Below, in pieces: positions 6,776 through 12,124 of a DNA stretch of 64,000 nt (position 1 is the first letter of the stretch; each line of letters opens with the position of its first letter). Under the pieces are notes generated by a model. It was not told where the DNA came from. It saw only the letters and a list, made by a program, of their open reading frames with translations, and ran no database searches. A program made the translations under genes and the position numbers. Origin of the DNA: a virus (Duplodnaviria > Caudoviricetes); the IMG/VR virus record IMGVR_UViG_3300028797_000010, positions 1 through 64,000 of that record. One strand, written 5' to 3'.

Positions 6776-7084
6776 TCACCCGCTTGAATCACAGTGCCAG
6801 TATAAAGACAAAGACTTACAGCACGAATGGTGGTCTGTATTAGCCCAACCACTACTATAACCATCCACAACAAATCCGTACTTGTCCTTCTGCTCCCAAA
6901 ACGCCTTCATAATCAAACGAGGCAGCATAACATCCAACCACATGTGTGTGGACGACCAAAACGGAGGATACCAGCCATTCTCATAACCTAAGTCACCAAT
7001 AGGGGCTAACTTGCGTAGGTCACTTAAACCAAAAAGACCTACCTTGCGGGACAACTCCCATTTCTTTTCTTTCGTCATGTACAT
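6776..7084 (-). CDS. Hypothetical protein, first gene of the leftward operon
   Basis: 102-aa ORF downstream of the promoter at 7135-7142. Confidence 0.65.
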   Translation of the reverse strand: MYMTKEKKWELSRKVGLFGLSDLRKLAPIGDLGYENGWYPPFWSSTHMWLDVMLPRLIMKAFWEQKDKYGFVVDGYSSGWANTDHHSCCKSLSLYWHCDSSG

Positions 7085-7134
7085 AATAACTTTCTTTTAT
7101 TATAAACAAACTATATAAAACTAAAACTTGGGTG

Positions 7135-7142
7135 CAAATTTA
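7135..7142 (-). promoter_or_regulatory. -7 promoter element (TAAATTTG) of the leftward operon
   Basis: TAAATTTGcacc on the minus strand, ~50 nt upstream of ATG 7084. Confidence 0.7.
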
Positions 7143-8870
7143 ATATATTAATTTAAATAATAAAGCATAATATTATAACTTTAACTAAACTTTAACCTTT
7201 ATAAAGAATTCTTTATATATATAGTTTACCTATTAAAAAAGTATATTCCTTATAAAATAAGATACCTATATAACTAAGTTTACCATATATAATAAGTAAC
7301 CCATTTATAATAAGATTCCATATATATAAGATATACGTATTACACGTGCATGCGCACGCGTACGCGTAAAAAGTAAACCCATTATAAATAGTTACCCTTA
7401 ATAAAAAACACGTCGATTGGCAATCAGTCGCATTCTTTTGGGCGATTTCTGAAAAATTTAATTTTAAAAATTTTTTCTGAAAAATGGGTTGTTGACACCA
7501 CACGAATGCAAGCGGAGAATAACCCCCCCCCCGTCTAAACCTTTGTAATTTATTGAAAATCAATCATTTATGATAATAAAATGTTCGTTTCATTATAATA
7601 ATATCACGCATTAATGCATTTATGAGTAAATAGCGAGTATTCATAATGCGAGGAACGCAAATGCGGCGAAAAAAGCAAAAACGGTGGGCATAAAGCATTC
7701 TATATCACATTTGCTTTTAGTTATAGTGTCACGTTTCTATATGTGGATATAATGCGTTTTAAAACCTTATAAATGGGTATTATTGATATATATGGTTGAA
7801 TGTACATTTATTCACAAAAAAATCATGTTACATGCGAAAAAGAACAAAGTAACATAAAAAAGAAAAAATGAATATTTATAAATAATATAATGAATAAATA
7901 TACTATATAGAAAAAGAAATAAAATAAGAAAAAGAAACATTTATCGCAAACGTTTACGTAAATATATAGGCATAGCGCAAACATATAACATCATGTTACG
8001 TAAAAATATAGTACATAATAAGTGTACTTTTTACACTAAAATTCGAATATTATATTACAATTATATGTACTTATTATATGTTATAACATGTGTGAAATGC
8101 TTATAAACAAAGGTGTGTCACATGATCTGTTTGAGTTTTGAAAATATACAACAAAACGTAACCCCTAATTTTTTCGTCCGTAACTATCTATAAATCAATA
8201 AGTTACAAGGTTTTTGCACAGAATAGCGAAGACTGTGAAAAATCGCCCACAATCGACGAACGCCTCCGAGTTGGTATAGCTATACCTCCTGGCTCGTTTT
8301 AACGCGTCAGCGGGCTTTTATCGCGTTCGCGGGAGAAGGGGTATTTTTGGCCGTTTCGGGGTGCAAATATAGTGTGTTTGGAAACGTGAAACGGGGACAC
8401 GTGAAAACGTACCCGTTTAAATATTCATTTTTCCACGTTTATACATGAATAAACAAAGGTATAAAAACGGGTATAAATACCACGTGAAAACATGCTATAA
8501 ATGCGCGGTATTATACCTCACGTACATTATATATAATATATATGGATACCTATATAGCACATAACATAACATGCTATATGTAAATTTTAATTAAATATTA
8601 ACAATCACGTAAACGTTTACGTAAAAATGTAAATAATTATTCGTAAACTATTTTTATTTTGATAATTATCGTGAAAACCTTTGTAAATAGGCATTTTAAT
8701 AAAATACGTGTAAATTAAATTGTATTATTTAGAAACTGTCTAAAAATAAAAAAGTGTTTCAATTGTAACAATAGCTTAAATTTTAACTTAATTTCCGTTT
8801 ATGAATATAGAAAAGATTTAAAATAATAAACTTTTTAGTTTTTATCGTTTTATATATGTATACCTTATAT
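7143..8870. other. AT-rich non-coding region (candidate origin/genome-end/control region)
   Basis: No credible ORF; lies at the strand switch; 28-nt RY tract 7341-7368, C10 run 7523-7532, palindromes TTTACGTAAA at 7953 and 8616. Confidence 0.5.
8364..8371 (-). promoter_or_regulatory. -7 promoter element (TATATTTG) with no downstream ORF
   Basis: TATATTTGcacc on the minus strand. Confidence 0.45.
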
Positions 8871-8878
8871 TATCTTTG
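8871..8878 (+). promoter_or_regulatory. -7 promoter element (TATCTTTG) heading the rightward transcript
   Basis: TATCTTTGca preceded by an AT-rich upstream region. Confidence 0.75.
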
Positions 8879-8884
8879 CACTGA

Positions 8885-9400
8885 AAAACGGATGAGGGCC
8901 GTTTCAAAAACCTCACACCGACACAGGCACCAGCGGGGAGCAACAAGCGAGGTATATGTTGAAACAATACGAACACGGGAGCCGCGAGGCCGACGTGTTA
9001 AAACTCAGTCACGTTAACGATTAAACGGGCACGGTTGCAACGGCCACGGACGGCAGTCAGATAAACGGTCTATGGCGGGCGCAATAAGTTGGCAACAACT
9101 GCACGGTGATTAAATGCTTTAGCTTATTGATACGGACGTGGCGAGGCGTGGGAAAGGGGACGTTTTAAAGTTTTCACGTCAGGGAAAAACGCAGGGCACG
9201 GTGAAACGTGGCCGACAAACGAAACGCGGTAATTATAGACGATAACAACAAAGGAAAAATAAAACGATTGATTGAACGTGTTATAATGTTATATAGCGGT
9301 AATTTCGACAAAGCGGAGTATCTTTAGAAAACACTGGAGATGAGGGTGAGGCCATTCCCCGTTGCTTCAGCTTAAACAATAAATAACAAACAGGAATGGA
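8885..9400 (+). ncRNA. Candidate large structured non-coding RNA
   Basis: Starts just after the promoter; ORF-free and GC-richer than its flanks; several hairpins with GNRA loops; possible long-range pairing CCTCAC (8911) / GTGAGG (9346). Confidence 0.5.
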
Positions 9401-9483
9401 CGGATTTATTTATATCTTATTTTTCTTTGGGTATGATATACACCAAACAACAAAGTATATCACAATCAATAAAACGATATAAG

Positions 9484-9528
9484 GCGACGGGAAACGGAGG
9501 CGCTGGTGACAGTACCGTTTTCCGTCGT
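9484..9528 (+). terminator. Long hairpin (terminator/attenuator-like)
   Basis: GCGACGGGAAACGG / CCGTTTTCCGTCGT 14-bp stem with an inner CTG-GTGA-CAG, followed by a short T run. Confidence 0.4.
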
Positions 9529-9626
9529 TTTCACGGCCAACGTGGTTTATGATTTTTCACGTGGCCACAAAATTAGTGATTTTCAAAACTTATTTTTTAA
9601 CTTAAAAATTTATAGGAGATTTAATT

Positions 9627-11006
9627 ATGATTAAAGTTAAGAACTTAACAACGGGTGAGGTTATCAACATCAGTCAGACAGGCCGCGACAAAGAGACAGG
9701 TCGTATTGTTACAAATGGAACTCCGTCTGCAAAGTTTTTGGCAAAGTACCCGCTTATTTCGACGGGCGAGACGAACGCCGAAGGAGACACGTTTATGGAG
9801 CTTAAAGTGGGCTTCGAGTTATTGACCGGCCAGCGCCGCCGTGCGCCACGAGAGGAGGCACCTGTGACGGAAACTCCGCAAGAGGAGGCGCCCGAGACCG
9901 AGGCCGTACCCGAAACGGAAACGGCCGAGGCACCTGTCGAAATGGAGACCACAATCGAGACCGAGGCCGTCGAGGAGGTAATACCCGAAAAGCCGAAGGC
10001 CAAAAAAGAGCCAAAGAAGGCCAGCACCGTCCCAACTCTTGACGCCGCAGCGCAGGCATTCGCAGCCCTCACACCATTGTTCTCGGGAGTTGAAGCAAAT
10101 GTAACGGCAGCTGTTATGGAGCGTATCCAGCCGTTGGCTGACCGTGTTGAGGCCATTTGTGGCCGTGCTCCACAGACCATAGTACATGTGATAAAAAGCC
10201 CGAAGGGTGAAGTGAAAACCGAGGCGGGCGAGGTGTTCCACGCTAACTTTAATGATGTTTGCAACCGTGTTGCTCGTGGCTCGTGGGTATATCTATATGG
10301 CCCCACGGGAAGCGGTAAGAACGTGATGGCCGAGCAAGTTGCCCGTGCGCTGGGTCTCGCTTTCCACTATCAGGCTCACACGCTCGACAGGTTTGAGCTC
10401 ACAGGATTTATCGACGCCAGCGGCTGCTATCAGCCAACGGAGTTCTATAAAGCATACACCGAGGGAGGCTTATTCATGTTGGACGAGCTTGACGCCTCCG
10501 ACGAAAATGCTCTTGTCACCCTTAACAGTGCATGTAACGGTTACTTTGCTTTCCCGTGTGGGACGGTAAAGCAGCACCCTGACTTCCGTTGTATCGCGGC
10601 AGGTAACACCTGTGGCCGTGGCGGCACGGACGATTATACCGCCCGCCATACTATGGATATTTCAAGCCTCGGCCGTTTTATACCGAGATACCACGGGTAC
10701 TGTAACGAGATAGATATGGCTTCGGCTAACGGTGACGCCGAGCTCGTCGAGTTCGTGCATGCTTTGCGCCGTGTGAAGCGCCAGGTAGGCTGTCAGATTA
10801 TCGCCTCACCCCGACAGATGAAAGAAATCGTTAAGGATATGGCGCAGGAGATTGACCTCACGCAGACGCTTACAGACGTTTTTGGCACATACCTCACTGC
10901 CGACGAGCTAAATATCGTTAAGGATTATCTGCATAATGATGAGGCGCTCGCGGCTGGTAATAAGTATGCGAAAGCATTCAAAAAGGTACAGGCGATTGAA
11001 TACTAA
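9627..11006 (+). CDS. MoxR/CbbQ-NirQ-like AAA+ ATPase with an acidic low-complexity N-terminal region
   Basis: Walker A YGPTGSGKN, Walker B LFMLDELDAS, HPDFRCIAAGNT sensor, and an R-finger-region LGRF. Confidence 0.88.
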   Translation: MIKVKNLTTGEVINISQTGRDKETGRIVTNGTPSAKFLAKYPLISTGETNAEGDTFMELKVGFELLTGQRRRAPREEAPVTETPQEEAPETEAVPETETAEAPVEMETTIETEAVEEVIPEKPKAKKEPKKASTVPTLDAAAQAFAALTPLFSGVEANVTAAVMERIQPLADRVEAICGRAPQTIVHVIKSPKGEVKTEAGEVFHANFNDVCNRVARGSWVYLYGPTGSGKNVMAEQVARALGLAFHYQAHTLDRFELTGFIDASGCYQPTEFYKAYTEGGLFMLDELDASDENALVTLNSACNGYFAFPCGTVKQHPDFRCIAAGNTCGRGGTDDYTARHTMDISSLGRFIPRYHGYCNEIDMASANGDAELVEFVHALRRVKRQVGCQIIASPRQMKEIVKDMAQEIDLTQTLTDVFGTYLTADELNIVKDYLHNDEALAAGNKYAKAFKKVQAIEY

Positions 11007-11885: not shown

Positions 11886-12124
11886 ACCTCCCCTAAAAAC
11901 GAGGGTGCAGACGTATAGTAGGGCTGCCCGTTGATACGACGGCTTGCCCTGTCGACTGCGACACAAAGGAGCGAGACCTTTGCGCCCACACTTATTTTAA
12001 AGCGATTTAAACGCATTTCTTTGTTTATGTGGATACGTACACCGTCGGCGTGGTACAAACGTTTTCACGGCCACGGAAACGGCGTTAAAATGAAAGTATT
12101 AACTTAATTATAAGAGGTAACAGA

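Follow-up and report, generated by a model that had tools for sequence, protein, structure and literature searches.

The window analysed here comprises the first 64 kb of an 85,380-bp IMG/VR virus record, which has 75-bp repeats at its termini and a genome GC content of 44.4%. The stretch of interest, positions 8885-9400, lies inside a 2-kb divergent region with few ORFs, between leftward genes that end at 7084 and a rightward arm that starts at 9627. A gene caller's annotation of an identical contig likewise contains no gene between 7084 and 9627, and a scan of the region for tRNA or tmRNA gave none. The first ORF of the rightward operon encodes an AAA_5 (MoxR-like) ATPase and is followed by the gene for a DUF7192 protein; most large plus-strand ORFs up to about 43 kb are co-oriented with these two genes. 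The intergenic sequence after the DUF7192 gene (11886-12124) is GC-rich and hairpin-prone, contains one copy of CGTTTTCACGGCC and resembles the conserved 3' module described below. In the public-run index, the stretch was present in two DNA runs only, from a bovine gut metagenome that is the probable source sample. Coordinates of the features are collected in Table 1.

Table 1. Features upstream of and including the first rightward ORF (positions in the 64-kb window).
Feature	Position	Strand	Evidence or remark
Conserved block upstream of the promoter	8804-8837	+	94% identity over 34 nt to L012 743-776, upstream of the TATCTTTGCA box of L012
Putative Bacteroidota-type -7 box, TATCTTTGCA	8871-8880	+	Motif enrichment, co-orientation with genes, recurrence in relatives
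Lineage-specific 5' domain of the proposed leader, core of the finding	8885-9280	+	ORF-free, without similarity to any relative
GNRA-capped hairpin AACACG-GGA-GCC(GCGA)GGC-CGA-CGTGTT	8971-9000	+	GCC-GCGA-GGC at 8981-8990
Second GNRA-capped hairpin, AGTTG(GCAA)CAACT	9087-9100	+	Hairpin count
CGTGAAAAC copy, reads GTTTTCACG on the plus strand	9170-9178	-	One of six exact copies
GTTATATAGCGG box (9288-9299) and weak similarity to the L002-type leader	9288-9358	+	First detectable homology to relatives
HP1, long stem with invariant apex GCNCUGGUGACAG (9500-9512)	9484-9530	+	Covariation, model match
HP2: UUUUCA, stem (9535-9544/9558-9566), U-rich loop GUUUAUGAUUUUU, ACAAA	9527-9571	+	Model R1
Conserved translation-initiation region (AATTTATAGGAGAT...), AGGAG-containing	9597-9626	+	85-100% identity to L002, L004, L006, L008, L010
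AAA_5 (MoxR-like) ATPase, ORF 1 of the rightward operon	9627-11006	+	PF07728, E = 5.6e-8; phrog_249

Near relatives of the phage were absent from GenBank phages and from IMG/VR, the latter searched by pattern and by ATPase profile, and JGI metagenomes contributed two short contigs. The relatives used for comparison are loci from about ten lineages (L002-L015, L136 and L137), which were reached via their ATPase homologues at 50-67% identity.

The stretch had been described in an earlier note, made from the sequence alone, as starting directly after a promoter-like box. This box was verified as TATCTTTG at 8871-8878, extending to the longer motif given in Table 1. The pattern TAnnTTTGCA, which we take to be the Bacteroidota -7 element, occurs 12 times in the window against 4.5 expected (12 or more in 0/100 shuffles), and nearly all of the 17 copies in the 85-kb genome are intergenic and aimed at the next gene. 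Because the motif is enriched, intergenic and gene-oriented, it is a credible -7 box of the Bacteroidota type. It also marks the 5' edge of an ORF-free leader in L008, L006, L004, L136, L137 and L012, the last with an identical box, and in L002 the corresponding promoter position is occupied by TAATTTTG. The conserved block further upstream is possibly an UP-element or operator. The promoter motif would place the start of a rightward transcript at about 8885. As to the earlier claim that the stretch is transcribed ahead of the ATPase gene, a credible promoter that recurs in relatives makes rightward transcription probable, but transcription itself is deduced from the motif.

A discrete RNA, as the earlier note had proposed, is not evident from what follows the promoter. 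No second plus-strand TAnnTTTG box was found between 8871 and 9627, and no terminator conserved across relatives was found between the stretch and the ATPase gene. A conserved apparent hairpin of relatives, GCCTA-CGCTGCAAAGA-TAGGC, doubles as a minus-strand TATCTTTGCA box and is missing from the window. On the minus strand of 8200-8371, the window does have another TAnnTTTGCA box, TATATTTGCA at 8362-8371, which faces a 150-nt island of 46-53% GC, and a terminator-like hairpin at 8262-8244. This arrangement could represent a small leftward non-coding RNA or leader.

The stretch itself is non-coding. The longest overlapping ORF (8856-9017, 53 aa) has its start before the promoter box, in agreement with the earlier statement that no ORF of 60 aa or more is present. 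Each of the six frames contains TAA, TAG and TGA, which leaves no gene to be saved by stop-codon recoding, and a small or recoded protein gene was rejected. The only early ATG (position 8892, 42 codons, judged by eye) has no counterpart in L012, L002 or L008. We also rejected a pseudogene of the small early ORFs of relatives, since tblastx finds no similarity, as well as a repeat, a DGR-like template or an antisense target elsewhere, for which a genome search gave the self match and chance words of at most 14 nt. The stretch is indeed GC-richer than its flanks, as had been noted: GC reaches 45-55% in 8850-9250, compared with 18-24% upstream, and drops to about 34-41% in 9200-9400. Overall, 60% of the bases in 8885-9480 are purines.

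The hairpins named in the earlier note are present as written, but their number is not above chance, with three perfect hairpins against 2.85 expected. The stretch had also been called rich in GNRA caps. Two GNRA-capped hairpins do occur, against 0.47 expected (P = 0.08), but the hairpin CACG(GTGAAA)CGTG has a hexaloop and not a GNRA tetraloop. The suggested closing helix CCTCAC/GTGAGG is not confirmed as more than a chance pairing, as a sequence of 516 nt should contain about 30 random helices of 6 bp (516^2/2/4096). Compared with shuffled sequences, the minimum free energy (MFE) z-score of 8880-9400 is -1.40 on the plus strand and -0.58 on the minus strand, 150-nt sliding windows within 8885-9400 range from +0.7 to -2.0, and the GC core (8885-9235) has a z-score of -0.48. 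With a folding energy equal to that of shuffles, a large ornate fold finds no backing. The strongest folding signal of the intergenic region lies at 9350-9600, with z-scores of -3.6 to -5.7, which are also the local values at HP1.

Known RNA families were searched with the Rfam 15 covariance models, which gave no match at gathering score anywhere in the window. When E values up to 10 were allowed for 8000-10000, only chance miRNA and snoRNA matches appeared, at 15-27 bits against cut-offs of 60-110, and the leaders of relatives had no Rfam match either. The idea of a divergent ROOL or GOLLD member had to be abandoned with Rfam silent at both levels and, judged by these models, the stretch is not a relative of either class.

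We looked for counterparts of the core of the stretch (8885-9280) by BLASTN, tblastx, an nhmmer profile and shuffle-controlled local alignment, and none was found in any relative locus. The homologue and covariation check suggested in the earlier note came out negative, with no homologue of 8885-9280 in GenBank phages, IMG/VR, the public-run index or 11 related loci. Other non-coding blocks of the same intergenic region (6928-7265, 7457-7601 and 9597-9639) align to relatives at 72-79%. Because the core cannot be aligned while these neighbouring blocks can, its sequence lacks the constraint that keeps the neighbours recognisable.

At the position of the stretch, relatives with an ATPase of 57-67% identity have unrelated ORF-free sequence, small ORFs, or nothing. 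ORF-free, GC-rich leaders, about 490-760 nt long, are located upstream of the ATPase gene in the window phage, L002, L008, L012, L136 and L137. Among their 5' domains, sequence relationship is confined to the L002/L008/L010 group and, in part, L137. The 5' domain is absent from L004, and small ORFs are located between the conserved hairpins and the ATPase gene in L004, L006, L007 and L015. What all leaders have in common is their composition, with 54-60% purine, 31-35% A, low T and G at least equal to C. The MFE z-scores of all six 5' domains lie between -0.5 and -1.8, none clearly below shuffles. From these comparisons the 5' domain appears as a replaceable element with fast turnover between phage lineages.

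Such variation would also be expected if the stretch were neutral spacer sequence or what is left of decayed small early genes, in a slot that gains and loses accessory genes and in which degenerate coding-like sequence was left behind in the window phage. The GC content of 44-55% and the purine bias resemble those of the coding strand of neighbouring genes, slot content and length vary by lineage, L006 may hold a 72-aa ORF in the 5' slot, and a structural signal is absent. On the other hand, tblastx detects no trace of the small ORFs of relatives, and six lineages independently keep 400-700 nt of ORF-free sequence with the same base bias. Since these slots stay ORF-free in six lineages and the L002 and L008 leaders are conserved, constraint is favoured over decay, and we regard a neutral origin as unlikely.

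The L002 and L008 leaders share 72% identity over 489 nt and contain no ORF. Their RNAalifold structure has 72 pairs, 13 of which are compensatory and none broken, against 0-1 compensatory pairs in slid controls. The 5' domain of L002/L008 is therefore modelled as probably folded, with the proviso that two sequences only are compared and the structure is derived from both. Given these compensatory pairs, the 5' domain of the window phage, too, may do more than provide spacing. The leaders of relatives each contain two copies of a 28-nt repeat, CCCCAGCGTTATATAGAGGGCATGGCAC (L002 4612-4639 and 4696-4723; L006 599-626 and 657-684; L008 1431-1460). All copies are predicted to be part of hairpins, in which L002 and L008 differ by compensatory changes. 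Of this repeat, the window retains only the core, GTTATATAGCGG, once, at 9288.

Detectable homology to relatives begins at this core. It is the window's only match to the GTTATATAGNGG box when one mismatch is allowed, and the 85-kb genome has no other exact match. The box is found twice in L002 and twice in L006, and once, with one mismatch, in L008. The 60 nt that follow it align weakly to L002 4620-4687 (z = 3.2). The conserved structured elements, two hairpins here called HP1 and HP2 (9484-9571), lie outside 8885-9400, just downstream.

The apex of HP1 (CUG-GUGA-CAG) combines a GCN bulge and a CUG/CAG stem of 3 bp with a GUGA loop, i.e., a GNRA tetraloop. The apex motif occurs once per locus, always on the plus strand, in the window and in L002, L004, L006, L008 and L010. 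In a gapless alignment of the flanking stem, 78.9% of the cells are paired, against 54.9% in shuffles (0/500 reach this value) and 25-45% in slid controls, and 15 of the 16 outer pairs have changed on both sides. A model built from five relatives with the window left out (R2) matches 9489-9523 with E = 0.0018; it also finds L136 and L137, the latter with GUGA replaced by GGGA, which is still a GNRA loop. An IMG/VR scan with the HP1 apex returned 120 loci, which were discarded as unrelated GC-rich sequence without hairpin context.

HP2 has a stem of 7-9 bp and a loop of the conserved GAGUUUNGCGANNUUUU type. When a model was built from L006, L015, L012 and L007 with the window left out (R1), the window copy was the best non-training match (26.8 bits, E = 1.7e-4), and L008, L002 and L010 were matched as well. 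The model-fitted alignment has 96.8% of its cells paired, with double changes in five of seven pairs. HP2 was rejected as an intrinsic terminator, as all lineages lack a U tract after it on both strands, and it is too short for an RNase III site. HP2-like hairpins are also present between later operon genes in L007 (4903-4961 and 4197-4255) and L015 (1300-1358), and from these extra copies HP2 may be a recurring intergenic signal and more than a leader element.

In every lineage, a distance of 30-65 nt separates HP1 and HP2 from the first rightward ORF that follows, whether this is the ATPase or a small gene. By their conservation and pairing, HP1 and HP2 are two uncatalogued hairpin motifs with covariation support. 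Because their loops are invariant on covarying stems, these hairpins appear to be read by a protein or another RNA, and they would thereby control downstream expression.

In the window phage, HP1 is a stem of -28.8 kcal/mol followed by UUUU. This combination could terminate transcription and give a discrete RNA of roughly 650 nt. The sequence from the 8871 promoter to HP1 and its U tract would then be an autonomous structured RNA of roughly 500-650 nt with a compact fold, lineage-specific and acting in trans, e.g., as a decoy, scaffold or anti-defence RNA. Its position close to the promoter, as an ORF-free, GC-rich island in AT-rich intergenic DNA, agrees with such an RNA, as do the very stable, terminator-like HP1 and the conserved, compensatory L002/L008 counterpart. 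A further point is that 8928-8935 (CACCAGCG), near the leader's 5' end, could pair without mismatch with the HP1 loop CGCTGGTG (9501-9508), a complementarity with P about 0.02-0.05. In L002 the corresponding sequences are TACCAGTGC and GCACTGGTG, and the sole variable loop base has changed together with its partner. This pairing may be a long-range contact or a coincidence.

An autonomous RNA nevertheless seems improbable. The U tract after HP1 is not conserved in relatives, and the complement of the HP1 loop is absent from L006 and L137. The 5' domain is dispensed with in L004, and in L004, L007 and L015 small ORFs come after the conserved hairpins. The folding energies of the core and of all six 5' domains, the hairpin counts at chance level and the lack of Rfam matches in window and relatives also speak against it, a purine content of 60% limits self-complementarity, and without a homologue of 8885-9280 there is no covariation to count.

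The long-range pairing also figures in a more speculative idea, in which a group of rumen and gut Bacteroidota phages opens the rightward operon with a 0.5-0.75-kb purine-rich non-coding RNA, the 5' domain of which is a rapidly diversifying, lineage-specific folded RNA with a role of its own (e.g., a decoy or counter-defence element) docked to the HP1 loop. If true, the stretch would be one of several non-homologous RNAs at the same position, held by HP1 and HP2. We consider this distinctly unlikely.

The region might also act at the level of DNA, as a divergent control region or replication origin between the two arms that carries sites for a phage DNA-binding protein, the GC content reflecting these sites. 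Six exact copies of CGTGAAAAC are present, on the plus strand at 8400, 8483 and 8670 and on the minus strand at 9170, 9527 and 12061, i.e., three per strand and mirrored about the promoter, and the rest of the 85 kb has no further copy. The copies at 9527 and 12061 have CGTTTTCACGGCC in common, and the one at 9527 overlaps the 5' flank of HP2. In addition, a perfect, operator-like palindrome of 16 bp, ACGTAAACGTTTACGT, occupies 8606-8621 in the AT-rich divergent region, and 7945-7960 is a near copy of it. Words with an ACGT core show strong enrichment over 8150-9630, and the cumulative GC skew has its minimum near 7500-7600. Together, the CGTGAAAAC copies and palindromes point to operators or an origin. 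As an explanation of the stretch itself, however, a DNA-level role is very unlikely. Most sites are to the left of the promoter, where the DNA is AT-rich, and inside 8885-9400 there is only the copy at 9170. The copies at 9527 and 9553 belong to HP2, and covarying stems with a conserved loop fit a single-stranded hairpin and not a duplex operator. A strand-asymmetric purine bias common to non-homologous leaders likewise fits a transcribed strand.

A separate non-coding block at 7452-7605 is about 72% conserved in L002 and L008, and a short piece of it recurs in L006. The block contains phased A/T tracts, GCACCACAC, a run of 10 C and CTGAAAATCA, and no consensus RNA fold was found in it. In its sequence it resembles a site that acts as DNA, for instance an origin, a packaging site or bent DNA.

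We therefore favour, with a probability of about 0.55, the reading of 8885-9400 as the promoter-proximal two-thirds of an untranslated 5' leader of roughly 750 nt (about 8885-9626, plus strand) that belongs to the rightward operon. Promoter and first ORF are on the same strand, with non-coding sequence between them. The leader reading builds on this non-coding state, on the promoter motif and its recurrence, and on the conservation and covariation of HP1 and HP2, from which we infer transcription itself, the extent of the transcript and its function. It is further supported by the ORF-free leaders of relatives with their common composition and by the detection of HP1 and HP2 with models that exclude the window. 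Three observations count against it: the terminator-like combination of HP1 and UUUU, the 13 compensatory pairs in the L002/L008 domain, and the overlap of CGTGAAAAC and nearby ACGT-cored palindromes with the leader.

In the proposed mechanism, host RNA polymerase probably starts at the 8871-8880 promoter and would produce a single rightward transcript, the first roughly 750 nt of which would be untranslated. The leader would consist of two parts. The first is a purine-rich and GC-rich 5' domain (about 8885-9280) with fast turnover, the fold of which is at chance level in the window phage. The second is a conserved 3' module made up of the GTTATATAGNGG box, HP1, HP2 and the ribosome-binding region. 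HP1 and HP2 would act in cis, through control of elongation or antitermination, message stability, or translation of the first ORF. The 5' domain may serve as a spacer or as a stabiliser that resists premature termination, with which the excess of G over C and the high A content are consistent; alternatively, it may have a lineage-specific RNA role.

Taken alone, the stretch is an unremarkable long leader without demonstrable fold, and a GC-rich, ORF-free stretch with some hairpins is insufficient for calling a large structured RNA. The wider interest lies in HP1 and HP2. In at least eight lineages of uncultivated phages these hairpins show where the rightward operon starts, and they offer handles on the control of early or replicative genes in Bacteroidota phages. 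The occurrence of non-homologous purine-rich leaders at one position also raises the question whether the selected property is length and composition, e.g., for termination resistance, or a lineage-specific RNA function.

ROOL (RF03087) and GOLLD (RF01998) are large ornate RNAs of bacteria and phages (PMC5737381; bioRxiv 10.1101/2024.12.08.627333 = PMC12286853). The stretch has in common with them a length of several hundred nt, the lack of an ORF and a location in phages; ROOL owes its name to a rumen origin, and the phage studied here comes from a bovine gut metagenome. Unlike these RNAs, the stretch has no covariance-model match at E up to 10, a folding energy not below that of shuffles, and a core without homologues or covariation. 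Whereas ornate RNAs are defined by conserved intricate folds, the sequence described here is replaceable between close lineages.

The leader also has parallels among promoter-proximal control elements. The lambda nut sites (boxA and the boxB hairpin) and the HK022 put RNAs are leader hairpins near the promoter that make RNA polymerase termination-resistant. As in these systems, small hairpins are found in the leader of a long co-directional phage operon, and HP1, with its invariant GNRA-capped apex on a variable, covarying stem, resembles the protein-recognised hairpins of the nut type, although this is a resemblance only. In contrast to lambda nut, the leader lacks a boxA: no sequence of the TGCTCTTTAACAA type was found within 8880-9627 with up to three mismatches allowed, and window-wide counts equal chance. 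Furthermore, no N-like protein was identified, and the HP1 apex is not a boxB sequence.

A long early-operon leader of a lytic phage is known from T7, where it lies upstream of gene 0.3. The leader described here differs from early leaders of this type in having no sequence relation to them and in HP2, which with its 7-9 bp and large loop is not an RNase III-type site. To our knowledge, a hypervariable 5' domain is not a described feature of T7-type early leaders. In overall layout the present leader and the T7 type are alike, both combining host-type promoter(s), several hundred untranslated nt and conserved hairpins before the first gene.
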